A stretch of 64,000 nt of DNA from assembly GCA_051294905.1 (NCBI GenBank), contig CM119371.1:1738001-1802000 (forward strand). Direction: 5' to 3'. The DNA comes from Botryllus schlosseri (lineage: Eukaryota). Both the position numbers and the translations under genes were made by a program. The notes below the pieces were generated by a model that saw nothing but the letters and a program-made list of their open reading frames with translations, did not search any database and had not been told where the DNA came from. This document shows positions 39,581 to 60,866 of the stretch, in pieces; the stretch's first letter is position 1, and each line of letters opens with the position of its first letter.

Positions 39581-42037
39581 AATATGAACATATACTATTC
39601 AATTGTGTATTGAATTTCTGTACCTCCAAGAAGCTCTGTTATTACTGTATAAAATCCTGTCTTACTTACTTACTGTGTCAAAAAATTGTTATGTTTTCAA
39701 TTTGTATTGTCATATTTAATGGCAACTTACACTGTTTCTTTTATCGCACATTCTACAACCGATTCTTTTGAAATAAAATATTTTTTCGATAAGAGCATGT
39801 GGGTGGAGGTTTTTCAGGTACATAATTTCGAGCTCTGCAGCGATAGGTACGGACATGCCACTTCAGACCACACAATATTATGACATACATCGCTACCACA
39901 CAATGTGGCTCCTAAAAAAAAATTCGAATATTGTGTGTTTTTTAGGTGCATAAATGCACGCGTTTAAGCTTACAGTATACGCATTGAAATATTTAATTAC
40001 AAATTCCAAGCAACTTTTCGCCGTCCGTATATTTCGCCCGCGGCCCGTCAAATGCCAAGGTCTGCTCTAAGATAATCTACAATCTTTGGGGGAACCCCTA
40101 ATTTTCCGTCAGTCACAACAACCAAACCAACCACACTACACAATCAGCACACATTTATTACATTACTTACATTGTGCGTCCGGTTAGTTGTGTTTTAGCT
40201 AGTTGCGGATTTTTACAGGTCATTAGTTCTCGTTGGGGTTGCATTTAAAACAAACGGTGTTTTAAAAAACATTGTCTAAAACATGTTGTAAACAGAAGTC
40301 ACTAGAAATAAAATTGTGTAAAGTTATGCCATAGGTGCGTAAATACTTTCCAAAAAACATTGTATGAGCCGAAGAACAATTACGACCCAATACAGCCGAC
40401 GTATATCGATATTGGATGGCTGGAACTCTAGAAATAGGCGGTTCAACAGTAATAGTACATATATTTCGTCAAAGAAACTATATTCATCCTATATTTTCAA
40501 TTGTCGATGTCAATCCATTATGACGTCACAATTGAATATTCATGAAGTCGTGACTTCAAAAACAATAAAAAAAAACATGCTTTAAACAAGGGCTTTGTTT
40601 ATATCATGTTTGTTTTAAATGCAACTCCAGTTTTAGTTATAGTTCTAGTTGTCGGTTTTGAAAGTGAATTTTTTTAAACTTCGAAAATGATTATATTGGT
40701 ATTTTCTGTCGATGCTCATGAATGACAAGATTTTAAACATTTTTACTCTCCAAATCACACAATATGAACATTTATTGTTCGACAATAAAGCGCGAAATGA
40801 TAGGTAAGGTACAGGACGGGCCAAGCCTCCTATATATTAGCGCAGTGCTGACACGTCCTCTGAGCACAGAAAATCTAAGCTGCGCACAAAAAATCCGATG
40901 TCATGATCATTTTTTCATTCGTTACGCACTGCTGTCCAAGGACCGCGCAGTGAGTTGGTGAGTGTGCACAGACTCGTTAAAATTAGAGGGAACATTGCTG
41001 CTAAGTGAATGTGTAAATAGCATAATAATATTTTCATATCAATTACCGAGTATATGACTGTTTATTCACAACAAAACTCACTGACCATGTAAGAATGCTA
41101 ACAAACAAGGTTGAAACTGAACAATACAATAATCAGACAGCAATGCCGAAGCTGGAAGTTGGAATCAGCATTCATTCAATTTAATTAATCAAGGTTTATG
41201 TAGACTAAGGGCGAAGGTTACGGAAGCTAGTTCATCCAGGTTAATTATGATCGTCTAATAATAATCTTTTATTATTGGCTAATAAACTTTGATATTGTGT
41301 TTCCCGAAAAATGAACATTTGCATAATATCTACTCTGAAGAGTTAATCAAGCCAATGTGACGTCTACCAGCGTCATATATTGCGCACAATTAGCCAGTTT
41401 TCGCCGCCCGGCTATTAAATTAGGTCAGTCGTCATACATGTGTTCGTTGGGTGAATCTGAATTAGTAATTTTAGGATAACAGCTGATGTCTATGGCATAT
41501 CACTATCTGGAGTAGCTAATCTTCAAAGTAATACTTTAAGCCAGGGGTCGCCAACCTGGTGCCCGCGGGCCCCAAGTAGCCCACGAGGACCAGATGAGTG
41601 GCCCGCGAGCCTGTTCTAAAAATAGATCGAATGCAGCATTTGCTAATATTCGTCAGATTATTGCCAGTGAGCTTTTAAATGTATAAATCGAGTTAATTAG
41701 CCATTCTTGTTTAAATCACACTATAACACGTGACTTAGAAATGACAATTCATATATATATAAACACTTAAAATGATGATATCAAATGTCCTAAATTACAA
41801 TTAGTAGGCTAATATACCAACATGTAATAGAATAACAAGATATCGAAGACGTAAAATACGGCGTACTGCCCATACAAGCGATATGACGGCATGCCATCCA
41901 CGGTCTTCTTGAAATGGTGGGGGGTTCCGTTATGGTTGCTCGACGTCCAGGACAATACCAAAGTAGTAAACAACATTACTATACGGTTGCAGATAGCGGT
42001 GAAGTACTAGCTGATGCAGTATGCCCATTACGTAATG

Positions 42038-43831
42038 CAGCGGTTCTCAACCGGGGGTCCGCGAAGCAATTTCAGGGGGTCCGCGAGACCTCTAAATTTT
42101 TTAAATGGCTGATAACCTAATTTTTATTTTATTTTTTAATTTGAGAAAGCATGAGTCAGTTTCGCACCACAACTGCTAAAACCTCATGACTCATATCATC
42201 ATAATAATCGTCTGACTTGGACTATCGTAGTGTGGGAACTCATTTTCATTGCCAATTTTCCAATAACCTGCAGATACAAACATAGCGCTGTTTAGAGACG
42301 TTTCGTTGGGGTTTGTGGATTGTGGAAAAAATAAAAATACGGAGATTTAACGTCAATCAGGGTGACTTCGTAATGTCTGCGAAACCTTCTCAATTTGAAG
42401 TTGTCAGTCTCGTCAAATTAGTGAACAGTCGTTTGAAATAAAAATTTACGAAGTTTTTCCATAATTTGTCCCAATGAAGGGAGCAGCTTCTTGGAGGTAC
42501 AGGACTTTAATACAATTGAATATTCATATTGAAATGGACCCGAATATTTTAGGCCGACACTCGTCATAAATCAGACAATGATATACCAGCTCCTAATCAT
42601 CATCATCATCATTGGTTTATTAGCAATTTTATCAGTTCAATACACCACAAAAAATGCGATACAATGAAGAGAAAGGAAGATGTCGAAGCGACTAGGAGTT
42701 GTCTATGGAATCGGACACCCACCTTGGCCTAGGCGATGTAAAGAGGCGGCATGCACACTGAATGAAAGTAGAAAGATAGTATAGAAGTAGAAAGATAGTA
42801 TAGAAACAGAAAGCGACAAGAAATAGGGCGGCATGTCATGGGAAGCGAGATCGATAGGTCAGTCGTGGTCCGGTAATCTTGAGGTTGGACTGTATTTATT
42901 TAGTAGTAATTGCTTGTATTTCGACTTGAATGTGGACATGCTCGTCGACTGTCGGATGGCCGGCGGGATACTGTTTCAGCACGGCTATCAGATTTTGCGC
43001 ATTCTAATTGCGGATGCCCTATCGACAAGGCTAATTTTTTGATGAATAAGGAGTGTTTCGTTGCTATCAAAGCATTACGCTCCAACCCTGACATTCATAT
43101 CACCAGTTCTATTGGTATGCAGCCTTGTCTTGTTAATGTTCAATTATTCATGGTCGAAAATGTTAGCTCGTAAATATATATGTAAACCCGAACAGAACAA
43201 GTCGTTTCATGACAGTCTTTCTCTGGTTGGAAAACTTTGATCGCATCCTTTGGAGCATAAATATTGTCTATATTGTCTGTAGGATTTCACTTTGACGGTA
43301 GAAACTCTCTGCGGGCCGATCAAAATGCCGTCGCGGGCCGAATCCGGCCAGCGGTCCGTATGTTCCCCGTCCCTGCGTTAGATGCTGGACGTGATATCTT
43401 CATAAAATATGTGTTTCTTCATTTTGGTGCCATAAATGTTGCGATCACACCAAAAGTATCGTTGGAAGCGTTATGCGTTAATATTGCATTAGCCTCCCTC
43501 TATCTTTGCGGAAATGGTTTTCGGCACTCCTCGTTCATATCAAAACGAAGACGCAAATTCTCAAGACATGACCACGAACTTCAAGAAATACAGCAGCAAA
43601 ATTAGCTTTGAAATACTAAAAGTCAACCAATTTCTACATAAATAGTATGATGTAATTTTCATGAAAAATCACTATTTTACCGTTTATCACAAGCCTACAG
43701 TTCATATTTGCACGAGACAGATGAAGGTTGCACCATAATAGAGCTAAAATTGAACTAAAACTTGAGGGGGTCCTTGAGGGTCCGTGACGGTCAAAAGGGG
43801 TCCGCGAAGCCAAAAAGGTTGAGAACCACTG
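42038..43831. mobile_element. Buster/Charlie hAT MITE, nested
   Basis: TIR CAG(C/T)GGTTCTCAACC, gggtccgcg repeats, perfect TSD ACGTAATG. Confidence 0.9.
42596..42980 (-). mobile_element. CR1-clade LINE 3' end
   Basis: NSIPPAIRQSTSMSTFKSKYKQLLL ORF2 end, 3' UTR with AATAAA and (GAT)n tail. Confidence 0.85.
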
Positions 43832-44919
43832 ACGTAATGCATCTTTTGATACAGCTTGTCTCTCTTACACTCAACGCAGTTTATAGTATCATTTTTTTAA
43901 CTTTCTGTAATCGATGCTGCTGTCAGGTATAATGAAATCTGTCATGTCTGGATGCTGAACAGTTAGAGATTGAAATTGTACCACTGCAAAGTCACCTACA
44001 CCCCAAAGCCCACAAGGCTGCAGCAAGCTTTTGGTGCCTTGTTGACACGGAAAAGTACAGTGGTGAATGCGCAGCAGCTATGGTTGGAAGCGTGTTTGGT
44101 TCAACCTATCGTTGTGAATCCGCCTTTGCGTACACGACCGTCATAAAAAAAACTCAAAACACGCCTCATTAATGCACATCTGGAACACTCACTCAGAGTT
44201 GCAGTGTCACGTTACATACAAGAGTACTGCATACTAGTTGATAGCATGCACTGCCAGGCCTCCCACTGACTGGTATAAAAACAGATAACACGATGTCCAG
44301 TCTAACGTGTGACATGATTTATTTTAAAATTTGAGCTGACAGTTGTTGTATAATTTATATAAACATGGTGCGAAGTAATTCGTGATTTCTTAAAAAGTGT
44401 TAGTGGCTAGCTAGTTGAAATGAGATATTTTGATTTAAAAGACACACTTAGAAGTCTTACCGCTATGCGATTCCTGCCCAGTGCTATGAATATCAAAGCG
44501 GAAATTCCGTTTGGTACGGGTAAACGGTGGGAGTAAATGGAAGCCCGTCGCTTCAATCAGTACCCAAAAGTAGCCCTTGGTTGCAAAAAGGTTGGTGACC
44601 CCTGCCTTAAGCCATCGCTGTCGGGTTCGTGATATCAATGAAAATACTCCTGATATACTCATATATCATGTATGTTCATAGTTCACTGAGCAGGTTGCTA
44701 CTATATCGTTCCCATCGAATACGATTTGAAAATTGCTATGGTTCCCGCAATAGGCCTAACCGACGCGAAATTATGACCCCGAATGGATTGCTACGAAAAG
44801 ATGTGAATATTGCACCATATCATATCGGAAGAGGGGAGGCTTCAAAATTAGATAAATTACAGAATAACACATAATATAGTTTTCCTACGAAATGAATCAT
44901 TTGAAAATGTATGACTTAG

Positions 44920-45233
44920 TCGTATTCGATTTTCCAGACACCTTGCAATGGTGCTCAAAAGCTCGTCGTCGATATTGCAGTTGAATAAATCCAAAGAACG
45001 AAGGCTTTGATTCCTTGCTGCGAGCGATCCAACGATATGAGCTTCATCACGATTCAATGAGATCCCATATACGTTGATGACGGAAAGATCTTTCATAAGA
45101 TTATCGTCGCCCGATTCGTAGATTGCTGTATATAGTTCCATGCGAACATATCTGTCTTCGTCATCAGTCTTATCGTGAAGTTGTGAAAGGACCGATTGAG
45201 ATAGAACTTGTTGCTTCTGTGTTTGATCCGAGA
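44920..45233 (-). CDS. NLR gene exon, end of HD2 and first LRR
   Basis: ttgcttgacag acceptor, phase 1, in frame with the NACHT exon. Encodes ELYTAIYESGDDNL and the LRR SLRSLDLFNCNIDDELLSTIARCL. The expected phase-0 donor reads CTAAGT, so the 3' boundary is inferred. Confidence 0.8.
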
Positions 45234-45883
45234 CTGTCAAGCAATACACAATGTCGTTGTACCCGTATTTGTAATGTTTCTTCCGTAATGGTTTGCATAA
45301 CAATTGAATAATTCACGCGACTGTGATGAGGCAGGGTTCAGATGGAGGCATTGAGGTCCGATGTTTAGTTTACAATAACAAGAGCATTTCATGCGCATCA
45401 ATATCGCATGTTAGACTAAGATCGGGTCCAGAATTCATACTTAAGTGTTGGATGTTTATTTAGGCTCACCCTCCTGAAGCTGTATCTTTCAAAAAGCTTA
45501 GAAGTGGGCCCTGCTACAAGTCGGCGGATGCGAAATCAAAAATGCCAAAAAATAGGCCGGGTGTAAATGACTCCTTTGGTCGACAGACACCATAAATACC
45601 CGAAACAAATTTACAAAACAATGTCACATATTGATCATCGATAGGCCCTTGTAGCGCACACGTTCCATAATCTGCGAACTTATGAAGATTTTAGATATAT
45701 AAGTTTTATTTAGCCGACTGAATGTGAAGACTTATTTACCAGCCGTGTATAAATTTAGGATTTTTCGACTATTTCACCCCATCGATTGTGACAATACCAT
45801 CAAAGTCATGATAAACCATAAGTGACCCATAATAATCAATCGATGCTGCGGTAGAATAGCCGCGGAAAACCATGATTACTCAC

Positions 45884-47329
45884 AGCTGTGAAGATCGTTA
45901 TTTGATTTCATGTAAACGATGCCTGTAACGAATCTTCGAACCACGGACCATCGTTTCTCATGTAGATGTTGGCCATCAAAGCGAGAGAACATTTCGAGCT
46001 CCATTTCCGAGATAAAACTAGCCGCCAGAAATTCTTGCATGCTTTGATGACAGAAGAAGAATGTGAAGTCGCCTTCCATCAAGTGACGGCTTAGGATGTT
46101 GTTGCCAGGCACTTTCGTCATCAAATCCTGCACTTCGTCTGCGGAAACTTTAAACCGATCCAAATCTGCTTTGTAGAATACGACTCGCCCCTGTTTCATG
46201 CCTTCAAACGCCATTGCTTTCAATTTCTGGATAATCGAGAGGATTTGCTTTCTGTTTCGCATATTTTCCACACTCTGCAAGACTAACATGATCCTGCTGT
46301 ATAGTTCTGTCACGGTAGACGGAGGAGGTCTATCTGGATCAATTCCCATCACCACTGCTATCAAAATCAGGAAAACCGGGACCGATACAAGTTGTAATAA
46401 TCGCGGTGACATGATTTTGATTTTCTCCCAGAGATGCTTCCCGTTCTCACGGAGCAGAGACGTGAACAGTTTATAAGCATCTTGTGGCGTGAGACCATTG
46501 AGTGTGATTATTTCTTTAGGGCGTGCTTGCGCCGGTAATTCGGAGACTTTGAATTCACGTGACGAGACGATGATCCTGACGTGACGAAGGATTTTGCGGG
46601 ATAAGATATTGTACATGATGATCGCAGAGCTCGCTTTCTTATACGGTGTAATCTTTCGGAGGCTGCTCTCCTCGAAATCCCACTGCATTTGATCAAGCCC
46701 GTCAAAAATGATAATTGCATCACTTTGATTGTCGACCAGCCATTCAAAAGCTTGGTCCTCTTCAGATTCATTTTTGAATAGACCGTCGAACAGGAACTTG
46801 GATGTTTTGATACCGTTCTCTTCATCCATGTTCTTCAATTCAATATAATGTATCATTTTTCGTTTCGGTTCACCGTTGTCACTCACAGATGACATTCCGA
46901 GCGCTTTTTGAGCAATTCTACGCATGAGGGTGGTTTTACCCGATCCTGCAGACGCGACGATAGCAGTGTAGCCAACTTCATAATTTGACGGTGACGGTAA
47001 TTTCTCATACTTTGACAGCGATTCCATTATCTTTTCCATAGTTATCGATTTACCGTCGTTGTCGGATTGACGATAAAACCCGACTTCCTCTATCAACTGA
47101 CTTTGAAAATCTTTTCTTCTAGATCCATGAACAGTTTCGTCCGTTGAAGATTTTTTCTCGCGAAAACGGCCTTTGTAGTAGTCATCAACATCGACTTTCT
47201 TCATCTGCGGGAAAACCTTGAAGTCAGGTTCGTGGACGAATTCATTCTTGAAGTCTTCACAAATTCCACTTGCCGTTTCTTGACGCGTGTTGCCGTTTAT
47301 AACCTCTATCAATTTCTTGTAATTAACGC
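45884..47329 (-). CDS. NLR gene, NACHT NTPase exon (NBD, HD1, winged helix, start of HD2)
   Basis: Covers ORF 45876..47312. Walker A ASAGSGKTT, Walker B IIIFDGLDQ, sensor-1 VSSR, HD1 VPVFL, WHD FCHQSMQEFLAA, then RWSVVRRFVTG. tttttctgcag acceptor, gtgagt donor, phase 1 to phase 1. Confidence 0.95.
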
Positions 47330-49046
47330 CTGCAGAAAAAAGAGCTTAAATTAGGAAAAATATCAAAACTGCCACGTCATCTTGCCAGTAAGAAATTACT
47401 ACAAATAATATTTTCTTACACTAGGACACTGTCATCAAGCTTAAATTTTTGCAGCTACATAAGCATGACAACCACTCTAAACGACCAAGAGATCGAGTGT
47501 TGCTCAATCAAGCCTAAATCAGTTATGATATTCCTCAGAAATCTAATCCTGCCTATGCTTATGAACTTTATTGCTATCTTCTCGCCCTCCATTATCTCCA
47601 ATGAATCATTACAAATATTTACCCTGTAGTAGATCAGTCTTCCTTAACGCGACAAGACTTATGCCGCCTGTTTTGCTTAGAAAACTGAGCCGCTGTCCGC
47701 AGAGTAGTTGTCATTGTTGTCGCCAATATGGTTGGTTGAGTTATTATATTGTGACGTGGCAACCTTGACAGCGGCTTAACCTAAGGTCACGGAAAGGTAG
47801 TAGGACGTTCATTGATTTCGTAACAATTGGTTTGTAGCTCAACCTTTCATGGCACTGGAGCATTTGCCATTTCGTCCGATACCGAAATCAAAATCCAAGA
47901 ATGGATGCCGGATGCCGCGACGCGGCCAGAGGTCGACTATTAGACCAGAGACCAGAGATCGAGACCAGAGATCGACTAATAATTCAACACGGTGTAGTGG
48001 GCGAGTCTGATATCATAGAAATGTTGAATTAGGCGAATTGGCGGGACCGTTATACGATCGGCAACGCAGGACCATAACAGCACTTTGTCAGACCCACCCC
48101 CCTCCCCGGAAAAAATCATTGGTATTGTGGCCCCATAGGGTGATATGCCCGACTTTTCGGGTAAGAAGTCCATCTGGCTTTACTTTTGGGGCTGCTACTT
48201 ATCAGCGAGTTTTGTGTACTGTTTGGCAAGTCAGCTTTAGTCGTCTAGACTCGCGAGAGACGAAATTTTTATATAATTCATGACTAAATCGGTCAATATG
48301 ATCAGGAATTGCATATATATATTGTTATCAATTTTTTATTTCCTCTCTGCTCATTTAACCAGATTTATTGGTAGAGCTGAGTGAGTTGTCTTGGAAAATG
48401 TAGGGGCCGTTTATAATGATGAAACAACTTCGGGCGGACCCGTTGGTATAATGATTTTATCGCATGATGTTATTTAGTGACCTCCTGTCTGCTATGTCGA
48501 AAGATACTGGCAAATAATTTTTCCCTGCGAGATGACATCTGTCTTGTGGGATTCAAATTTCAGCGCCATTTATTTAGCGGCTATGGACAACTAGACAATA
48601 TATCGAAGTTTTCGGTCAGCATAGGGGCAGTCTTTTTCAGCCAAGGATTTCTCTCTGGCGATTTTCCTGGCACACTTCTCGGAGTCGCATGTGACATGGT
48701 CTAAAACCACATGTCTTGGTGCGTCGTGACACGGTAATGGCCGAGGCCGAAATGTCAATTTCTCTAAATAATGCGCATTTGTTCTTGGGGAGGTAACCAA
48801 TGCTCAGGATATTTGGCAACAATAAATTGCGCGCAACGCGGAACATTTATGAAAATGTTGGATATCTATGAATTTCCCAAATTTCCAATTTCGTGAGGTT
48901 TGGGGTACCACAGAAGCCAGAACACTAATGAAATCTTCAAGACTTCCAGGCCTGGCAAAACTTCTTCACATATTTTGAACATCATTGTAAAGCAGACCCT
49001 TCCCCCAAATTTACAGACCGTATTGATTAAATAGCATCATACTCAC

Positions 49047-49193
49047 TTTGAATCCTGGAAGGTGTTTCTCCTTCAGCGCCAGTAATGCTGTAGACGATTT
49101 GTTTTACATTTATTTGATCTCCGGCCACGACGTTCACAGAGCTTTTCGTGAACTTCAGATTGACATTTTCTTCTTCGGCCAAAGTTGCGGATC
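49047..49193 (-). CDS. NLR gene exon 2, N-terminal segment with RHIM-like/amyloid-like motif
   Basis: ttcttag acceptor and gtgagt donor. 147 nt open, phase 1 to phase 1: SATLAEEENVNLKFTKSSVNVVAGDQINVKQIVYSITGAEGETPSRIQ. Joins the NACHT exon in frame. Confidence 0.8.
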
Positions 49194-50451
49194 CTAAGAA
49201 ACACATTTTTATTGTATACTGCTTGTCAGGTTCAATATATAGCCTTATAACAAAATGATATGGATTCTATTATTTTCTTCGATGTCCTTCGGATTATTAT
49301 TTGCGTAACAAGCAAAATGTACGGTATTTGAATAACTTCACAACTGTTCCAGATGGATAATATTATCATGTATTATAACAGATCTGATCTCAAATACTAG
49401 GCTACTAACCGCTTATTACGGAGGTCATTGATATAGGCTTGACATAAGCGACACCAGAATCGTTATCTTTACCCTCTTCTGGCACTCCACTGATAAGGTG
49501 GTACTAATTAGCTAGCATATATATGACGATGCTGAAAATATTTCTTAGCATTCTATGTTGAATCCTTCGAATTTCATAATCAATAACTTTCTCATCAACA
49601 GTCGTAACCTCTCATGCCATCAAACTGTCCGTTGGGATAGCCAGCATTCTTGTGGCCTTTTGTTGTGATATGGCTATAAAAGGGGCAGGATATTTTTATT
49701 GTTATAAAGGAGGGCGTGTCTATTAAAGCATGAACACCACTGTTTCACGGCATTGTCTTTAAACGATTGTAGATTGCAGCCAAAGTCTGAGAGGCCTGAC
49801 ACGCGATTATTCATGCAAGCGAATAGCGATGATATCTTGCGCACATGGCCTGTTGTAGGCCTACATACAGTGGCGGCTCGTGACAATATCGGGTGGTGGG
49901 GCAAGGGCTGCAAGCGACTTTTTATCACGATGACGTCACAATGACGTTTTCCAACATAAACAAGTAACTTGATGGTACGGTAACATGAATTTCCCGACAA
50001 CAGTGATTTTAACGTATGTGCCACGAGAGGTCTGCCGGTGAGCTGTGCCTTCAAGTGTGGTAACTGCGTAAACGGCGTACGGAACAAAGATTCAACACGG
50101 TTCATGTTCGCACGTGACCTCACTAATTATCTGCAGAAATGGAAATGACTATAACTCAAAAGATTTGTAAGCCTAAATGGAAAGGTTAACGAGTTCGGAC
50201 ACATACGCAATTTTTATCTCGTAGATTCGGCCTGTCATATTGAATCAAAAACATCATTCTGAAGAACTCGGAAGTTCGGTCTCGGTACAGCATAGGAGAT
50301 GTTGGCCTTGAAACTGGAGACTGTAACACGACACATACGGCTTACTGTATATATGTCTGCTGCGAAATCGCCTATGCAAAATATATTACCGAATAAATAC
50401 GTGGATGAAAGTCGTAATCTTAGTACACTGTTACATGACATCGTATTGTCA

Positions 50452-50560
50452 GATTCTATAGACAACCTAGTCGCTTCGACATCTTCCTTTCTTTCATTGT
50501 ATCGCATTTTTTGTGGTGTATTGAACTGATAAAATTGCTAATAAACCAATGTTGATGATA
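50452..50560 (+). mobile_element. Short 3'-tail copy of the same CR1-like LINE
   Basis: Reverse complement of about 42600-42712 and 54705-54821; aataaa followed by a degenerate gat tail. Confidence 0.8.
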
Positions 50561-50809
50561 TCATCGAGAAGTAGCCTCATGACACTTTTTGGTATGATGC
50601 ACTGTCAAAATTAATACGGACAGACCAACACCGAATTTTGCGTAAAATTTACTGAGGAATAGGCCTATCAAGGGATCAGCTATTAGTCGCCAGCTATCGC
50701 GCTTGACAGGGGTGAAATTGACATTGGAGAATATAAAGTAAAAGTAAATATTTGAATGCAAACCGAGAATGTTAGTAAACTGTTTCATGATATCATCATC
50801 TCATCACAT

Positions 50810-51581
50810 ATCTCAGTATGGAACACAGTTAACGTTAGCACAGATACACCGGCTTTTGCGTGAAATCCGCAATGCGTTATAGGTAGGCTAAAGTGTCAGA
50901 TCAGCGCACATCTCTACCATACTCGACCTTGATAACAAAATTACTGCCATAATCATTGAGTGTCAACCTTGAGACTTGGCACAGCGTTCGATACTAAAAT
51001 CAAGACATACCGTGTAAAAGCTCATGACGGATCTAGGTAAGGAGCATCGTTAAAATCAATAGAGACCAATACCGGCTTTGCGTAAGATCTGTTTGCGATA
51101 AATGACGAGTCAGTTCTCACTCGACTTAGGAAAAGAAATTACCACCAACATAGTTCAGTGACAAACTTGAAACTTGGTACAGCGTTCGATACTAACATTA
51201 AGACTTACCGTGCCAAATGTCATGACCGATCTCGGTATGGAACATCGTCAAAATCAATGGATACCAATACCGGCTTTTGAGTAAAATCTGTTTGCGATAC
51301 ATGACGGATCAGCACACACTCAACTTCGGAGACGGAATTACTACCCTAAACTTTAGGTAGAAACCCTGAAATTTGGGGCAGTGTTAACTACCACCATCAC
51401 ACGACACGACATACCAAGTTTCAAGAATTATCATGGTGTGAAACACCATCAAAATCGACCTATACCAGCAAAGGTCGACTAAACGCATATGACGGTAAAA
51501 CCGAGTTCAGACATAGATACGATTGTTACATCACACCTTAAGGGCAACAGAGCTATGTTGCCCCGGTTGCTCGGCAATTTT
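50810..51581 (+). mobile_element. Helentron/DINE-like element with ~198-bp internal tandem repeats
   Basis: ga(a/g)acttgg.acagcgttcgatacta unit at about 50971, 51169 and 51368. 3' hairpin GGGCAACA..TGTTGCCC (51542-51563) followed by ctcggcaattt. Confidence 0.6.
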
Positions 51582-54026
51582 ATGAATAGGAGAGAGTAAA
51601 TCACCGTTTCTTTATTGTGCGCGGCTTTGAGAGAATAGACAGTCAAAGCTTGTTATGAGCGCTACCAGGGCATGCCCCGGCTATACATTCGCAAAGCAAA
51701 AACACAGAAGAGAAGTCGATTTTCTCAGAGACTTCGCTATATATGGGCATTTACAAGCGAACTAATAAGAAGAATGCGATTTTCGCTGTGATTTCAGTAT
51801 ATATCGATTGCTGGGCATCTTAAATGGTAAAGAATTGTTATTGAACAGAATTTTAGGTGGGGCAATGCCCCAGTTTCCCTATAGGACGAGCCGCCACTGC
51901 CTACATACGATTGCTCAGGTCGGTTGTTGACGCGAACAATTATTGAGTATTGCGAGCGGGTGCAGATATCCAATCCACTACCCAATTATGCTCATGTAGC
52001 CTACAAATGACAAACCAATTCAGCAGGATATCACATGCGGCTCTGTGCAGCGCGGACGAATCTTGCTAATTGGCAACACGTATGTTGCCAATAATTGGCA
52101 GCGCGTAACACTGGTAATACGAATTATGCGAATCGCGATTGAAAACAAACACAAAGAAGGATGTGATTTGAAGTTTTATTTTGAGGGAGATTTTTTTCAA
52201 GAATTGTTGTACTCATGCGTAATGTGCGCCCCCTTACAAAAATCGGGAGGTAAGATTTTGCACAGTATAAGTGAAAAAAACTATGGTAACTCAGTATACA
52301 TGGACGGGCTACTCGTGAGCCACTTCAATTTTATTCTAGTGACTTTGATTCTAAAGCATAATATATATGACATAAACTTATAAGGAAATATATTACGTTT
52401 TCATAATTTTGTACCTTTCTATGCGCTCAGTGCATATGCTTGACAGACCGACCATCAGCTATTCAACTAACAGCAATACGCATTCTCCAGTTACTCTTAT
52501 CAGAGGCATCTCCGGATCGGTGCAATGTGCATCATTCAAAATCTAGTGTTAGTGCATGGATGGTTCGATCATCGCAATGATGACAGTTGAAATCGTAATA
52601 TAATCAAGATTATTGACGTTATTGAAACACGTTTCAACACAAATTAGACTTGTTCCGAGTGCAAGAAACGAATTTTGTTCGGATGGCTTCGTGTCCCCCT
52701 AATATGCTTCTACGCCGTCTAATGGAGGTGTGCCCCCAGTTTGAGAAACACTGTTTTAGACCTTAAAATGCATTTACCAGTACCTTTGATTTTATTTTAT
52801 TAGGCCTACAACAAAATAGGGGGTATTGTTCCATCTGTGAGGATCATGAGAGCTTTGCAATGTCTCAATTAGCAGAATAAGGTTAGCCTATGCAACTAGA
52901 TCAATATATTATAGATATACAGTGGTTCCAAAACAGTGAGCCGTCACAGAATCCCAGGTGTGCTGTAAGTCCTTCTGGGATTTTGAAGAAAAACACTGTA
53001 TAATATTGAAGATTGGGCAATGGGCATGCAGACCAGCAGAGCGGTCAAACTTTTACAGCATACTGATAAATAAAGAACAGACGCCCAAGTGCATTGTCCA
53101 TGAAATCAATCCTGGCATTGCCAATGAATATGGTAATGTCTCTAAATCATTATTGGGCGACTATGTCTAGATCAAAAGTTATTTTTATTCCCTTCAAATC
53201 AACTCATAATAACGAAATCGTGCCACAAATGTTTGCACAATGCCTAGAATTCAATATACACAACAATACTTTCCATGAATTTCTGTAAACATATAGGCCT
53301 ACAGGCTAGTAATCAACTCAATTGGAAGCCATAAATCAAACCACCGTTTTCAGAAGAAGAACATCTCATTGATGTACTGATTGCCTTTATTTTGTGATTT
53401 TGTGATTTAATTTGTGATGTCCCTTTCAAATCCTATTCCATGATAAGTGCAATCAACATTTATTGTTATCTGCACCTTAACAGGTTTATTTGTATATCTG
53501 TTTCTTTCATTTTGGCTGAAATAAAAAGGCGTAACCGAGATACACTGCTCGGAACACAACAATATGCAGGCATGTTACTGAATGATTAAAAATAGTTTCA
53601 GTGCAAGATATATTTGCATAAACAAGCATAGCCAACGCATACACGCGAATCGATTTGTAAGCAACCGAAAATGTGTCACAGTAAGCCTAAAAACTTTGGT
53701 AACCACTTTATATATATATAATAGGGTTGCCATATTTTGGTTTGACAAATTCCGGACGCTCTTCAGCGCCCCCTAGCGGATTTCAAAATGAGGTATGGGC
53801 AGTGAGCACATTGTCGATCAAGATGACGTCACACAAGCCATGCTTTGTCTATCAACTAGAGGTGGTCAGTGGTCATGATCCAGTTCAGGAGTATGTGGTT
53901 GTATGTTGTAAGTTGTAACTAGGGCCGAAGCCACACTTTTTTTCAGCCCCCTTCCCGACAAAATAAACACTGATCTTGGGTCCACCGTCAGTGAATCGAT
54001 GCAACTTCTGGGGGCTTACTAAATGC

Positions 54027-54543
54027 TAGGGCTGGGCAAAATCGAGTACCTGAGTGATTCGATTCTGAATCACGTGAAATGCTTCGAGTCGAGTCGAGTA
54101 ATCGAGTATCACCCATTATGACGTCACAACATAATGTAATATGTCGAATTTCAAATATGTACCTTTTATGCGACCTCAAAGACTATAATTCCTGTTATCC
54201 ATCACATTAAAGATACTTTGGTATTTTTTCGACCATGCCGATTTCATTGCACTTGGTGACAATGTTGTGGGATAATCATGGCTTCGGAAATGTGTTATTC
54301 CTAGTAACGTTCGTAGCTTTGTACTATATCTTTGGTATGCTACGATACGGCCAATCAAGGCTCCAAGGCTTCAACAGTGAAAATTAGTATCGAAACTATA
54401 ATTCTCGTTGATAAATTAGCTTTCAGTGGCGAGGAGAGTATAATTTCAGTACTCGAAAAAATCGTATTTTACTACTCGACTCGAATCATTAAAATTAATA
54501 CTCGATTCAGATTCGAGTACTCGAATCATTGTGCCCGGCCCTA
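54027..54543. mobile_element. hAT MITE with CGAGTA/TACTCG arrays
   Basis: TIR TAGGGC(T/C)GGGCA, perfect TSD CTAAATGC. Confidence 0.88.
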
Positions 54544-54703
54544 CTAAATGCATTTGGCCGTTGATTTATTTGAATGAATTATATCAATAATATTGGTTCT
54601 TCGATATCCTATATGATCAGCGAGTTAGCGGTAGACCTGGTGGAGGATGATGACTTCGAAAATGTAATGAGCGTAATTGTACATCGCTAAGTCATGTTCA
54701 TGC

Positions 54704-56640
54704 CATCATCATCATCATCATTGGTTTATTAGCAATTTTATCAGTTCAATACACCACAAAAAATGCGATACAATGAAAAGACAGGAAGATGTCGAAGCGA
54801 CAAGGAGCAGTCTATGGAATCTGTATTTCGACTTGAATGTGGACAATAGGGTTGTCCATAATTTGGAAAATCTCAAAATTTATGCGTATCCATGTCTCAT
54901 TCTATAGATTATAGTCAAAAAACGTCAATGAACCTGCAATAAGCTCACGGGAAAGTCGTTAACATTTGTCTAAATGCGTTTGAAAGTAGCTGCCGTAGAG
55001 TAGGCGTGTCAGCGACCATAGAACGGCAAGCAGACTAGTAATCACGAAATCACGGCGTTTGATTGGCTAATCTGCTACTCTTCAATGATCACGATATTGG
55101 CGGCTTGTTGGTCAGCTGGTCAAGGAATCGGCTAACGCCGGTGATTCTGTAAGCGCATTGTAGGTTGGACCGCCAATCATGATTAAGGATTAATTCAGAA
55201 CATGTTGAGTAACGAAACACATGATGAACAAAGAACAGCTGCTTCACAATATTTTCAAATACATGACATGATGGCTTATTGTGAAGGTAACCGTTGTAGC
55301 CTGTATGCCTTGATTTCATTGATGGAAAGCACAAAATCAAGCGGAAAAATATTGCAAAGGCGCTTATGCAAGTGGCAAACGAATTTCTAGTTTCAGAGAG
55401 GATGTAACATCATTGAATACAAATATAAAGCTGGACATTGACACTACTTTGTCTGATCTTATTAGGCTGTTGTCGTGGTATATAATTGAAGTCTTGAATG
55501 CTGTAAGGGCTGGATGAATCTGTCATTTATGCTTGGCACTTGTCAGATTATTGCAGCATAATGAATCATACCTGCAAGTGCTGTCAAAGTCCTCAATGAT
55601 GCCGCGAAAAGAAGTCTAAAGATAAGCACAGACTATGCTGGTAGGACCAGCAAAAAGACAGTTTGCTTGCATTGCTTAGCATCTCCTTAATGAATCTTAG
55701 ATCATTACCGGCTGCATCACGACTAATATTCTTGAATCAAACCAGACATGGACATAAAAATGATGTATTGAAGCGGTGTGGTAGTTACACTCTTCTTCAG
55801 AAATCCAATGTAAGCTACCTGGTCGGCCCACATATCTTCTGAGCATACAGGATTGTGTCCAGAATCCATATCACACGGTATGCTGCACCAGTTTGGCGAT
55901 GTCTAATATACCTTACCTCCACCCAGAAAAACAGGACCACTTGGTGTAATCTCAAGCATATCAGATATGTAGGCTATTTCTGGTATCTATACTTACTTCT
56001 ATAAGTTCACAATCACTGTTTCACCTCTGTCATGCCTGCAGTAGGTTATTGTTGCACTAAAGCTATCGATACCTAGTTTTAACCCTAAAACATTCAATGA
56101 CCAGATGTCTCATTTTATTATTAAATCACCAACCTACAATGCGCTTACAGAATCATTGCCGACAGCGAACTTCTTGAACTAGTATAAGCACATAATCAGC
56201 AAGCCGCTGTGGTCGTGACCATTCAAGCATAGCTGATTAACCAATCAAGAGACATGATTTCGTGATCACTAGTCTTCTCGCCGTTCTATGGTCGCTAACA
56301 CGCCCACTCTACGGCAGCTACTTTCAAACGCATTTAGACAAATGTTAGCGACTTTCCTATGAGCTTATAGCAGGTTCGTTGATGTTTTTTTTTATCAATA
56401 ATATACATAATGAGACATGGATACGCATCTTTTTTGATATTTTCCAAATTATGGACAACCCTAGTGGACATGCTCGTCGACTGTCGGATGGCCGGCGGGA
56501 TACTGTTCCACACATCAGGTCCGGCATATTTGATAGAGCGATGATCTTTTCGGTCGATCATATGATATTTGGACGACGTGGACGCGCGTGTGTTGTAATT
56601 GTGTGCTTTTGATTCCGAGGTAAAGAAGTCATTTTAATAT
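54704..56640 (-). mobile_element. CR1-clade LINE 3' fragment interrupted by a hAT element
   Basis: AHNYNTRASTSS...SIKYAGPDVWNSIPPAIRQSTSMST at about 56464-56610 continues across the insertion into 54704-54846, which carries the (GAT)n tail. Confidence 0.85.
54847..56463. mobile_element. hAT (hATm-like) element with ~320-bp TIRs
   Basis: TIR TAGGGTTGTCCATAATTTGGAAAAT, TSD GTGGACA(A/T). The uninterrupted target gtggacat is seen in the LINE copy near 42932. Confidence 0.9.
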
Positions 56641-57371
56641 TCGGGGCAACGACCGCAGTGGAACTGATACATAAACTTGTCACACCGATAAGATTATGCG
56701 CACTGCACCACCGAGCTATATATACGCCGCATATCCGGTGGTCTCCGACCTTTTATGGTCGCGATTTCATTTCCAATTCGAAAATGTTCCGTGGTCCAGT
56801 TCAAAATTTGATGAGCTGATTAATAATTAAAGGTTGGCATATTTCTCCAAACTTACTCATGGTCTATTTTCGAAGCTGATTACCCCATATTAAAGGCAAA
56901 CTACCCCAGATTTAGAACGTCTATATTTGAATAAAGCATCCAAATGGCCTAAGCCGACTCTATGAATGTACGTTATCTTTTAATTGCGATTACAATTAGA
57001 CTTATTTTTGTAAATGAATGTTATTTTTATTTATTTTTGATCGCAGTTTTTGCGAGGGTGTTTAGTCGCCATAATAAAACCAAAATACATGATACTAAAT
57101 CGCGCGCAGCGGGAAGAAAAATTTCATGTAGCATAAATTTTCCCAAAAATAATGTTGTTTATGCTGATTTACGAAAAAATTGTGAGCTCACTTCAAGCCT
57201 TCAAAATTCCGGACATTTAGGCATATTTTAGAAATTCCTCCCGGACGCAGTTTTAACAGTGAAATTCCGGACATGTCCGGGAAATTCCGGACGTATGGCA
57301 ACCCTAATATATAACCAATTCATATTGATAATATCGATCACACGAATAGCAGTAATTAGGGATATCCTAAC

Positions 57372-57444
57372 CGGTAGCTACGGCTAACGACGATGAAGGC
57401 ACATCAGTGATACCAGAATCTTCACATCGACGCCTTTTCGCCAT
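57372..57444 (-). CDS. NLR gene, putative first coding exon (MAKRRRCEDSGITDVPSSSLAVAT-G)
   Basis: ATC-ATG-G start context, 16 nt downstream of an atttag acceptor (57461-57466). Open 73 nt ending phase 1 at a gttagg donor, matching the phase-1 start of exon 49047-49193. Confidence 0.55.
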
Positions 57445-59003
57445 GATAGGCCAACTATCACTAAATATTAAATAGCTCCTGTATGAAACAATTACCTAAA
57501 ATGCAATAACAGTAGTTACGCTTTTCCAAGAACTTCATATGCATAAGATGCGGAGAATCAAGTCAGCAACTGCAAACGGACACAAATTTACCAGTCCAAT
57601 TATCCATGTGAAATTTGATCACCGTTCAGGAACAAATCACATCACCTATCCAAGAAGCAAACAATTTTTTATATGTTCATGTCATTTACATGGAGTCCAA
57701 CACCAACCTAGCGATCAGTAACCGTCAACAACTAAGCTTCTAGTTCAGGATTAATATTCCAGTAAAATTTATTAATCCCGCTGTACAACCCACGCCAAAA
57801 CTAAGAAAATACTGGAACTGAACTTCAAAACCTATTATTCTCAGTGAGCAGTTCTAGATCTGAAACTGTTTCAATTTGAACGGGTATGATCCATGACTGG
57901 CAACCTGTCATTCCTCTTATGACTCTAAATAGCAATCCTGAATGTCAAGCCATGCAGTCGAAATTAACAAAGTATGCCTTCTGTGCAGAGCAGCAAAGAA
58001 AGGATTACACCACGCTCTCAGCAAGTGTCCGTTTTGGCCTGATGAAGATTAGCAATGAAAAATGGAACTCGCTCGTTATCAGAGATAAAAAAGAAACGAT
58101 TGAGGATTCCAAATATACCACTACATTGCATTGTGACTCGTCTTCTATAAACTAGTTTTCTATCCTGGAGCTACTACACAGCTACATTGCCTTCAGTACT
58201 GCAAACCGACTCGCCACTGAACTCTAACGAAATTGTGGAAATGTTCGGATCCAGGAATACCAGTAGAAATCCCGTTGCCGACCAAATAATATCAACCAGA
58301 GATGAAGAGTATTTCAAAGTGTCAAACTGACGAGAAATAACGGTATTTTATAGAAACCTAGGGTTCTGGTAAACATCATGTTGCGTTTGATCAAAATCGC
58401 ATCTAATCAAAGCAATAATACAAATCATGATTATTTTGATATTTTGGTTTTTACTCATAATATTAACAATAAAAGAACATGGAAAAATGACGACCAGGCC
58501 AGATGCCAATCGAGGCAACGCAGCATATCGCATCAACTCAATAAAGCGCGACTGGGAATTACCATACGCATTGTTTAAAATGGTCAACCTCACTGACAAT
58601 AATTTGTCGCTAGAATAGCCATTAATCCGCTCCGAGACCTGTGGAGTATGGCTGGGTCAGGGTTCTAAACAGGTCACAAGGCTCCGACTTACACGTCAAT
58701 CTCACTTTCACAATTTTAACTCGAGTCAAGTCGATCACAAAGACAAGACCGAGTTGAAGTCCGGGTGTACAACTGGCATTATATCTGGGGTCGCATAAAT
58801 AGTACAATGTAGCCTACATATTTGAATTTCTCACGTCGCTTATACAGTTGTGATATCATTAGTCAATAATGTGTGTTACTCGAATACTTGATTTTAAGCC
58901 TAATACTCGATTCAGAATCGCATTCGTCAGGTGTACGATATCGACCACCCTTAATATCGAGTCAAATAGGAATCATATATAACACTAGCATATGTATCAT
59001 GAG

Positions 59004-59889
59004 TAGGGCAATTTTTTTTTGACATGTCATAACAACGCAAAATTAGGTCAAAATTGTAGCGTTAGGTCAAAATTTGTCAAAATTGTTTACAAATTCAAAC
59101 ATTTTTTGACCTCTGCATTTCGTTTGTATCGTAGATTTTGCGCTGTCGGTGAACTTATCATTTGATATTTTACAGCTTGTAGCCTACTTTATAGGTCTAC
59201 CGTTGTGAACGGACCATCGTCTGCTCATTGTGAATCATAAATGGTCAAATGAAACAAATAGTGACATGGTTTTATGGTCAACGTACCGCAATATCCTAGC
59301 TGAAGCAAGACTGCTTGGACATCGCATGGTTCTTATATCAAGAAGCGCAAGCTGAAAAATTGTGATATAGACGACATTGCCAGAATGAAGCAACACGGTT
59401 TGTCACCAGCAGTGTGCACATAACTTGAGTGTTGTCAGCCAACAAATGCTGCTGTTGAACTTTCTTTCTCCGTTCTTGGCAAGCTACGTAGTAAGGACAT
59501 ACACTTTCTTCCCGAGAACGTAGGAAAGGATCTTTCGTTGTACTACAACAAATTTTAATTATTTCCACCAGAATACGGAATGTAACCACTGGAATTCTTC
59601 ATAGGGCCAGATTTCGTTAAAATACTAGTTTTTCATGTAAAAATATGTCAGTTTTTAGTTTTTGAGCCAAAAACGTTTTTTCAAAAAAATCTACTTTGTA
59701 AGGACAGACAGTTCCAACCAGAAATGAAGATAAGTAGTACAATTTTAACATTATATGTGCAAACACCTAATTTGCATACGTGAGGTCAAAATTTGGTCAA
59801 ATTTCAGTTTTTTTAGGTCAAAAAAAGTCAAAATTTAAATTTTTTAGGTCAAAATCTTCCGTTTTTTAGGTCAAAAAAAAATTGCCCTA
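59004..59889 (+). mobile_element. hAT deletion derivative with C-terminal transposase remnant
   Basis: TIR TAGGGCAATTTTTTTT, TSD ATCATGAG, aggtcaaaa arrays. Remnant CQPTNAAVELSFSVLGKLRSKDIHFLPEN resembles the hAT dimerisation motif P.S..VERSFS. Confidence 0.85.
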
Positions 59890-60260
59890 ATCATGAGCAA
59901 TCTTCTCTCGAAGCTGCGTGCGTTGCATTGATCATGAGTATCATTGATGCTCATGGGGTGGTCTCTGGATGCGATAAACTAAGTCTGGTTTATGCACAAT
60001 TCGCAATGCACATCCAATAATAAACCCAATTCACGCATCATCTCCCTAGAAAATAAAACAGCGGCTAAAGAAAATCCACGAAATCAGCGCAGTGAACAGA
60101 AAATAAAAAAATCAAGGTTAGAAACTTGAATTAAATCGCATTGATTTAAATCAGCCAAATTTAAACAAGAATCCAACCTCTGACTGGGTTTTAGTGTGAC
60201 TTCGCAGATTCTAGTTTATTTTCATACATTTGCCTGAAATCCAGGGGCATGTATACTCAT

Positions 60261-60866
60261 TAGGGCTGTTCAAAAATAATTTCTTTCTCCTGATTCCAGC
60301 CTTTCACTTATTAAATTGTCAGGTTACCATAAAAAAACTCTGCACACCAAATTTGATTCAATTCTAACAAGTATAGGACTCCGCAGATCCAATTGAAATT
60401 TTTAATTTAATTTTTAATTTGAATTCTCAATTTTTTTGCCAATTCCCTGAAATTGTTGAGCTGTCTTCAAAGACGATGCAAAACAAATTTGACTCAATTC
60501 CGACCAGTAAAAGCGGAGTTAGGTGAGTTTTTTGTTGATAATTCTCGAATTATCCACCGATCAAGGATAATCCGAGGATTATCACCGAAAAACTCACATA
60601 ACTCCGCTTTTACTGGTCGGAATTGAGTCAAATTTGTTTTGCATCGTCTTCGAAGACAGCTCAACAATTTCATGGGGATGGCAGAAAAATTTGAGAATTT
60701 ATTTTTTAATTTTCACTAATAAATTAAAATTTTTAATTGGATCTGCAGAGTCCTATACTTGTCAGAATTGAACCATATTTGGCGTGCAGCGTTTTTTAGG
60801 GTAACCTGACAATTTAATCAGTGAATGGCTGGAATCCGGGAAAAAAAGGTATTTTTGAACTGCGTA
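60261..60866. mobile_element. Near-perfect palindromic MITE
   Basis: tagggctgttcaaaaata ... tatttttgaactgcgta, arms of about 300 bp, centre near 60570. Confidence 0.8.

Follow-up and report, generated by a model that had tools for sequence, protein, structure and literature searches.

Short amyloid motifs placed N-terminally to the nucleotide-binding oligomerisation domain (NOD) are known from NOD-like receptors (NLRs) of fungi (PMC12881547) and of bacteria. These motifs (the HRAM of fungal HET-s/NWD2, PP, sigma, and the bacterial BASS) span ~20-40 residues and combine conserved Gly, Asn and Gln with hydrophobic positions. In HET-s, internal pseudo-repeats build a two-rung solenoid. In amphioxus, the RHIM-NACHT-repeat proteins (e.g., BF82280) carry a short non-globular motif, the RHIM (for RIP homotypic interaction motif), in place of an N-terminal death-fold domain; they form an expanded family with occasional tandem motifs and flexible flanks (PMC4262963). 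The idea that an amyloid-type motif may head an animal NLR was already published for these amphioxus proteins in 2014 (Kajava et al., PMC4262963). According to the same paper, tunicates appear to be devoid of RHIMs, and a metazoan NLR survey describes ascidian NLRs as lacking an N-terminal domain (PMC11508797). The subject of this report is a window of 64,000 nucleotides (64 kb) of the tunicate Botryllus schlosseri (GCA_051294905.1, contig CM119371.1, positions 1,738,001 to 1,802,000), and within it an NLR gene whose NACHT exon is preceded by a small exon (the "motif exon") encoding a peptide with a conserved 37-residue core. An earlier note on this DNA, made from the sequence alone, had proposed this peptide to be a RHIM-like amyloid motif heading an animal NLR.

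The peptide is very probably a genuine N-terminal module. The reading favoured here, held at slightly less than even confidence, takes it for an N-terminal signalling module specific to this lineage and belonging to a large tunicate NLR family, neither death-fold nor RHIM, and possibly cross-β. Searched against the 495-Mb genome, the 48-residue peptide matches 127 places at E<=10 (65 below 1e-3), with a single one in the 64-kb window. Their splice context was tabulated in 52 rows, comprising 38 distinct motif copies and 14 duplicates: in all 52, an AG precedes the first full codon by two bases, and in 50 a GT donor stands one base past the last full codon. NACHT loci were pooled from two scans, one with the window exon as query (87 scored of 216 candidates) and one with the Pfam NACHT model (94 of 224), which together yield at least 121 distinct loci. 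For at least 69 of the 127 motif exons, a NACHT exon follows downstream in the same orientation within 20 kb, at a median distance of 7.3 kb, versus 3/127 on the upstream side and 0/127 on the opposite strand in the mirror controls. Conversely, at least 62 of the 121 NACHT loci carry a motif exon upstream. These linkage counts are lower bounds because many NACHT candidates are unscored. Two further copies, L032 and L039, are accompanied by a NACHT exon according to tblastn. A transposon-borne pseudo-exon, which was also considered, is contradicted by a linkage to NACHT that depends on both strand and side (69 versus 3 and 0).

A second architecture is found on contig C8, where four clustered copies are followed, 4-8 kb downstream, by genes with six-bladed NHL repeats. 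A conserved phase-1 acceptor would join these motif exons to the NHL exons in frame. The motif exon is a real, constrained coding cassette that lies upstream of NACHT in no fewer than 69 genes and of NHL propellers in four. It also occurs in tandem: in L015, a single NACHT exon is preceded by two canonical motif exons separated by 1.1 kb, and L050 has two copies 0.5 kb apart, the second devoid of a GT donor. The shufflable phase-1/1 exon imagined in the earlier note is therefore met with before NACHT genes, before NHL genes, and in duplicate.

Several observations concern the NHL genes themselves. Those of the C8 cluster are ruled out as TRIM-NHL genes, as a B-box scan found no B-box near them. 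A conventional-looking TRIM-NHL gene is present elsewhere (C9:19537425-19544241, minus strand), with a B-box match 5 kb upstream of its NHL repeats. In one locus, a retrotransposon harbouring RVT_1, RNase H, and integrase zinc-binding and core domains lies between the motif and NHL exons (L037:2269-6427, corresponding to C8:3918996-3923154).

The peptide encoded by these exons is strongly constrained over its first 37 residues. Among the 36 aligned copies on which the core statistics are based, L4 is invariant, and at least 90% of the copies share A2, A5, G7, E8, N9, S17, V19, V22 and V33. The ratio of nonsynonymous to synonymous substitutions (dN/dS, pairwise Nei-Gojobori) amounts to 0.19 over residues 1-37, as estimated from 578 pairs with dS>0.15, and to 0.69 over the tail (490 pairs). 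With this constraint and 127 genomic places, the motif goes far beyond what chance would produce. This substitution pattern indicates that the core is a peptide under purifying selection and the tail a linker. A functionless disordered linker is contradicted, for the core, by the ratio of 0.19. Conservation among paralogs, a check set out in the earlier note, is observed (dN/dS 0.19, ten positions of the 36 copies at 90% identity or more); the exact pattern V-x-G-D-x-x-N that it had put forward is confined to 12 of the 36 copies, the core itself being conserved.

The core is rich in Asn/Gln, Gly and V/I/L, and its residues 7-37 have a mean composition of 22% N+Q, 35% V/I/L/F/Y and 0.33 Pro, with a net charge near 0. 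When the column profile is compared with itself, the score rises above zero only at an offset of 17 (7.7) or 34 (3.5); any other offset gives -3.0 at best. In the resulting pseudo-repeats, an [AE]-x-G-[ED] turn recurs and leads into [NQ]-phi-N-phi; they can be written as two to three 17-residue units of the form S-x-x-phi-x-x-G-[ED]-[NQ]-phi-N-phi. As in the amyloid-motif class, conserved Gly, Asn and Gln are thus combined with hydrophobic strands and pseudo-repeats, G24 being an Arg in 8/36 copies. Structure prediction with AlphaFold2 (AF2) from the 36-sequence alignment yields two strands (residues 10-18 and 32-41) with a mean predicted local distance difference test score (pLDDT) of 64 and a predicted template modelling score (pTM) of 0.29. 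The peptide is accordingly predicted as strand-prone and without a confident globular fold. A complex prediction with four copies, in which the alignment was unused, returned a score of 0.02 and a mark of 0.32.

In the window, the motif exon belongs to a NACHT-type NLR gene (Table 1). The 489-residue frame of the NACHT exon matches the Pfam NACHT model (PF05729) with 70 bits (E 2.8e-19, cut-off 26.7) and NOD2_WH with 28 bits (cut-off 23.1), revealing an NTPase domain followed by a winged helix. Positions 45906-47342 display 32-34% identity to NLRs of Styela clava, and tblastn with the latter also aligns 44956-45240, a helical region continuing past the NACHT exon. The leucine-rich repeat (LRR) model LRR_6 reaches 19.9 bits, below its cut-off of 23.4, at the sole LRR-like unit. 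The motif exon is flanked by canonical splice sites (...tttcttag/GA on the acceptor side, A/gtgagt on the donor side), both in phase 1. In the frame set by the phase-1 acceptor, positions 49191-49047 read SATLAEEENVNLKFTKSSVNVVAGDQINVKQIVYSITGAEGETPSRIQ, which is stop-free; a second frame that was translated is interrupted by many stops. The NACHT exon lies 1.7 kb downstream; it starts after ctgcag, two bases completing the split codon (phase 1), and ends at ACAGCT/GTGAGT, with the G at 45883, again in phase 1.

Table 1. Features of the NLR gene model; coordinates are window positions, and the motif, exon 1 and the NACHT exon are all on the minus strand.
Feature	Position	Strand	Description	Basis
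Putative exon 1	57372..57444	minus	Start exon, 24 codons + 1 nt, translation MAKRRRCEDSGITDVPSSSLAVAT	
Intron 1	49194..57371	minus	8.2 kb	
Motif exon (exon 2)	49047..49193	minus	147 nt, phase 1/1, 49 codons counting split ones	
Conserved 37-residue core (S1-T37)	49081..49191	minus	17-residue pseudo-repeats SATLAEGENVNLKFTKS / SVNVVAGDQINVNKIVY / NITGAEGE...	Alignment, column counts, dN/dS, periodicity
26-mer singled out by the earlier note	49090..49167	minus	NVNLKFTKSSVNVVAGDQINVKQIVY, residues 9-34 of the exon peptide	Exact map
NACHT exon (pre-NACHT region, NACHT, winged helix)	45884..47329	minus	Phase 1/1, 489-aa open frame	
Exon 4 region	44860..45320	minus	Helical-domain continuation + one LRR-like unit at 45003; phase-1 acceptor 45321/45320	

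No six-helix death-fold domain (CARD, PYD, DD or DED) was found N-terminal to NACHT. None of the 54 minus-strand open reading frames (ORFs) of at least 45 residues in 47458-60712, a segment covering both introns and 3 kb upstream, matches Pfam at E<=0.01, nor does any of the 39 other ORFs of at least 90 residues in the window at E<=0.001. Genome-wide, no motif exon among the 127 has one of the 116 Pfam Death matches closer than 60 kb, the genome-wide scan being restricted to Death among the four death-fold domains. Many of these 116 matches form inverted pairs separated by ~10 kb, whose members score identically and have open frames of ~100 residues (e.g., C4:20656892 on the plus and C4:20667428 on the minus strand; C5:25440527 on the minus and C5:25450416 on the plus strand); they look like a repeated element, or a palindromic duplication, with a Death-like ORF. 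Several statements of the earlier note are borne out by this gene model: the gene is a NACHT NLR (70 bits versus 26.7), exon 1, the motif exon and the phase-1 NACHT acceptor agree on ~73 residues preceding the NACHT exon, the peptide occupies a phase-1/1 exon of its own with canonical sites, and no death-fold exon was seen in the introns or upstream, nor any Death match near the other motif exons.

The nearest relatives of the NACHT exon are ascidian NLRs. Among 18 matches, 13 are from Styela clava, four from Clavelina lepadiformis and one from a fish; identity is 30-34% for the 12 Styela NLRs that cover more than 90% of the query. Their N-terminal slots are filled in different ways. Styela P0004 harbors a Death domain (23.9 bits versus a cut-off of 22.6) and Clavelina P0015 a TIR domain (TIR_2). 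Styela P0003, P0005, P0006 and P0010 possess 250-470 N-terminal residues without Pfam domain, consisting of tandem repeats rich in V/I/N/Q/T/E/A that precede NACHT. Since Death, TIR or repeats are found at the same position in these relatives, this slot is a swappable output-module position in the NLR clade.

The Botryllus peptide shares with P0004 Death and P0015 TIR_2 this slot, a NACHT identity of 30-34% and 26-28%, respectively, and a presumed homotypic signalling. In contrast, it comprises 37 residues versus 85-125 and is strand-prone (pLDDT 64), neither helical nor Rossmann-like. Compared with the Styela repeats, it shows the same position, a similar composition and common words (E-N-V, N-I-T-G, N-[VI]-x-A-G), also without Pfam match. 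However, no homology is detectable between them: the motif profile against the Styela NLR N-termini gives an hhalign probability of 0.2% and negative hmmsearch scores, and the P0006 unit of ~68 residues is repeated several times, versus one cassette with a 17-residue period in Botryllus. It may be that ascidian NLRs possess, in the Styela repeats (130-370 N-terminal residues), a second non-globular module at the N-terminus, independent of the first. AF2, applied to P0006 in search of a β-solenoid in its repeats, predicts residues 1-370 as non-globular with a pLDDT of ~22, which carries no fold information.

Beyond these relatives, the motif has few counterparts in databases. Pfam returns only KOW2_Spt5 with the peptide (E 0.1), a word-indexed search of longer proteins with the 48-residue peptide scored none of 72 candidates, and the best ESM Atlas score (0.77) corresponds to unnamed bacterial clusters and is uninformative. 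A profile search of 1.84 billion protein representatives gives 14 matches at E<=1e-3, of which 12 were examined (all except P0033, 1425 residues, and P0034, 1890 residues). Eleven of the 12 are ORF fragments of 40-124 residues that read through a motif exon and its intron flanks. The remaining one, the repetitive P0031 (466 residues), is taken as a chance match. The 12 matches examined include no relative in an annotated protein and no annotated RHIM protein. The closest place in the Botryllus genome shares only 59% and 63% identity with two of the fragments, P0024 and P0032; the exon family is therefore present in at least one other sequenced genome. Used as a query, P0032 exposed further divergent copies in Botryllus, e.g., C1:12465031 and C1:11612124, which the window peptide had missed. 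The motif is undescribed in the literature searched on invertebrate amyloid or RHIM NLR signalling, tunicate NLRs and Botryllus NACHT, a corpus that leaves most subscription journals uncovered. With nothing matching in Pfam, the PDB or the searched annotated proteins, the motif family itself appears to be new.

How such a module might work is suggested by the described systems. Oligomerisation of NACHT would cluster the N-terminal motif peptides, which may then pair with each other, or with the motif on other proteins, through stacking of β-strands. Stacking would lead to a cross-β or small β-solenoid assembly by which the signal is passed on, in functional analogy to the RHIM and to the fungal and bacterial NLR amyloid motifs. 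Strand stacking is the most economical proposal and follows these precedents, namely the amphioxus RHIM-NACHT-repeat proteins (PMC4262963), and the amyloid motifs on fungal (PMC12881547) and bacterial NLRs. As in the latter, the short motif stands N-terminal to the NOD, both in the gene model and in the 69 of 127 exons located upstream of NACHT; its length, its conserved Gly, Asn, Gln and hydrophobic residues, and its internal pseudo-repeats are also comparable. In contrast with them, it displays no sequence similarity, no effector bearing the same motif was found, adjacent or elsewhere, among the copies inspected, its amyloid nature is only proposed, and its second architecture involves another putative sensor, the NHL propeller. 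A role of the motif in homotypic assembly or as an adaptor is judged slightly more probable than improbable, whereas genuine amyloid templating is doubtful. The most specific version, a tunicate-specific prion-like motif unrelated to RHIMs, folding as a two-rung 17-residue β-solenoid that heads more than 60 NLRs as well as NHL-propeller receptors and, once these oligomerise, nucleates a cross-β polymer to which other motif-bearing proteins are recruited, is somewhat more doubtful still.

Several observations weigh against the amyloid version. The Pfam RHIM model (PF12721) matches neither the peptide nor any of the 36 copies at E<=10, and its best genome-wide score, 17.7 bits for a cut-off of 20, is located away from the motif exons. 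The RHIM tetrad [IV]Q[IVLC]G is present in 0/36 copies, and so is the RHIM core G-phi-Q-phi-G, as worded in PMC7885112; the looser G-x-Q-x-[NG] occurs in 17/36. A profile search of the PDB gives chance matches only (best MthK, E 0.11), with no RIPK1/3 RHIM chain and no HET-s among them. Hence, neither the RHIM model nor the PDB profile provides a sequence link to any known amyloid motif. The peptide could nevertheless be a divergent but genuine RHIM, forming RHIM-type amyloid with RHIM-bearing partners. It occupies the same architectural slot as in the amphioxus proteins (PMC4262963), V33-Y34-N35-I36-T37-G38 resembles by eye the I-Y-N-[SC]-[ST]-G that precedes the RIP1/RIP3 tetrad (PMC4262963, Fig. 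S1A), and G-[DN]-Q-phi-N is found in 17/36 copies. However, A-E-G-E follows Y-N-x-T-G where the tetrad is expected, no annotated RHIM protein appears among the matches in 1.84 billion proteins, and tunicates are reported as apparently RHIM-less in PMC4262963. Compared by description only, the amphioxus proteins further differ in that the nearest relatives of the Botryllus gene are ascidian NLRs. The peptide is not a RHIM by any test run, and a true RHIM relationship is unlikely; as an explanation of the whole architecture, a divergent RHIM is highly improbable. The RHIM likeness advanced in the earlier note is given up.

A serious rival, although doubtful in its turn, is a non-amyloid module: a β-hairpin or linear peptide docking onto a folded adaptor, or a peptide assembling only within the NLR oligomer, e.g., as a strand-swapped ring or as a barrel of membrane-inserting amphipathic β-hairpins (an "all-in-one" executioner NLR). 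The two-strand hairpin predicted by AF2 is consistent with it, as is the alternation of polar and hydrophobic residues at N9-T15 and Q26-N30. The highest conservation falls on the acidic A-T-L-A-E-G-E-N, unlike a usual fibril core, and its A-E-G-E-N segment rather resembles a recognition site. Also against the amyloid version, Arg stands in place of the "turn" glycine G24 in 8/36 copies, and the maximum at offset 17 is equalled by 14/1000 column shuffles, a moderate significance only; windowed periodicity tests are weaker still (15/300 and 25/300 shuffles). EADs, proposed in PMC7159879 as homotypic coupling adaptors on signal transduction ATPases with numerous domains (STAND NTPases), offer a possible model. 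The Pfam EAD10 model (PF19954) matches 3/36 copies at E 0.0098-0.14 in a consistent register (residues 4-40 versus profile positions 32-68 of 77). EAD10 is likewise a small adaptor on STAND-type NTPases for which homotypic effector coupling has been proposed. Against this, the best score, 16.4 bits, stays below the cut-off of 24.1, so that the peptide is not assigned to EAD10; the matching copies are not independent, a genome scan with the EAD10 model misses the motif exons, and EAD10 is described as mixed alpha+beta (PMC7159879). Moreover, the AF2 confidence is low, nothing points to a partner, and tandem duplication and the 17-residue periodicity suit stacking better than a single docking site.

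The non-amyloid module also gains from the failure to find a motif-bearing effector, either in the 64-kb window or among 20 inspected NACHT-less copies. These 20 were drawn from 66 copies then without NACHT partner; 18 of them lack NACHT within 9 kb downstream, and after the later NACHT scan 53 copies remain without NACHT within 40 kb. An executioner-type domain (kinase, caspase, TIR or pore-former) is encoded in the 9 kb of downstream DNA of none of the 20, and six of them are orphan exons within a repeated unit of 3.6 kb that shows no ORF downstream. The kinase, caspase or pore-former bearing the motif that the earlier note had envisaged was thus not encountered among these copies. Of the amyloid-type-headed NLR as a whole, the NACHT NLR, the lack of a death-fold and the shuffled conserved exon stand, while the RHIM likeness and, among the copies inspected, the motif-bearing effector are not supported. 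The orphan exons form a subfamily of their own (SATLAQGENVNL.F.KSPVNLVAGNQTNVKNVFNF...; L035, L038, L040, L042, L043 and L044), dispersed on contig C1 at 3.84, 2.40, 1.69, 1.31, 1.01 and 0.58 Mb, through the C1 NLR cluster. Their 3.6-kb unit shows 82-96% identity among repeats, and its most conserved block, of 168 bp, bears stops in all frames.

A last set of observations concerns the window copy alone, which may be drifting or decaying. It has a Glu at position 7 (49171-49173), a Gly in 34/36 copies, and a Ser at position 35 (49087-49089), an Asn in 30/36. No further LRR exons are recognisable downstream within the window. Four raw RNA-seq runs under the same species label were mapped on positions 42001-60000 at 97% likeness, using 6-13% of each run. 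Depth is 0 in every bin of 46201-49800 in all four runs, and no junction reads join exon 1 to the motif exon or the motif exon to the NACHT exon. The window copy is, therefore, not detectably expressed in these four samples. These results would suit a silent or decaying paralog, or a wrong 5' chain with exon 1 unused or further exons present, in which case no protein expressed from this locus would have the ~73-residue N-terminus, the reality of the family being unaffected. Intron 1 is enlarged by two repeat insertions (~49857-51898 and ~53720-57306), its counterpart in the closest paralog (L004/L051 by blastn) measuring 4.1 kb, and three exon-1-like matches precede truncated NACHT matches with no motif-exon match between them by eye. 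However, the 489-residue NACHT frame is intact, all splice sites are canonical with matching phases, the closest paralog, whose NACHT exon is 92% identical to that of the window, retains the exon 1 - intron - exon 2 layout, and NLR expression is often low or induction-dependent. Decay, or a wrong 5' chain, is improbable for this locus.

The chain from exon 1 through exon 2 to the NACHT exon remains a prediction. Exon 1, as read from the sequence, ends at a GT donor in phase 1 and has an in-frame TAG four codons 5' of its ATG. The genome holds ten exon-1-like matches; in three cases a motif exon follows 3.4-8.2 kb downstream. The 5' chain proposed in the earlier note is thus consistent with canonical sites, phases and these matches, but obtains no junction support from the four runs.

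RNA reads do cover repeats in and around intron 1, with a depth of up to ~35 (42600-43800, 49800-52200, 54000-55200 and 56400-57300). These reads show fixed differences and loose ends (e.g., at 57306), and include a "joint" 42931->56464 with 44 ambiguous bases. The two intron 1 insertions coincide with RNA-covered repeats. Since many reads break at 57306, which is an insertion boundary relative to the paralog, they derive from other copies of the repeats. The RNA-covered stretches of intron 1 are transcribed dispersed repeats, not NLR exons.

The motif family is found in a lineage reported as apparently RHIM-less in PMC4262963, and whose NLRs are described without N-terminal domains in PMC11508797. 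The cassette, carried by about half of the scored NACHT loci, could be the output module that ascidian NLRs have seemed to lack, a candidate concrete enough to be tested. A motif that polymerises, as proposed by analogy, would also provide an easily tested peptide of 37 residues. In that case, amyloid-type NLR signalling would have arisen, or persisted, in chordates outside the RHIM family. Were the prion-like version to be true, the motif would be a metazoan counterpart of fungal NWD2/HET-S and the missing effector domain of ascidian NLRs. If the motif does not polymerise, it would still constitute a domain-sized family absent from Pfam, whose recognition would change the annotation of over 100 genes.

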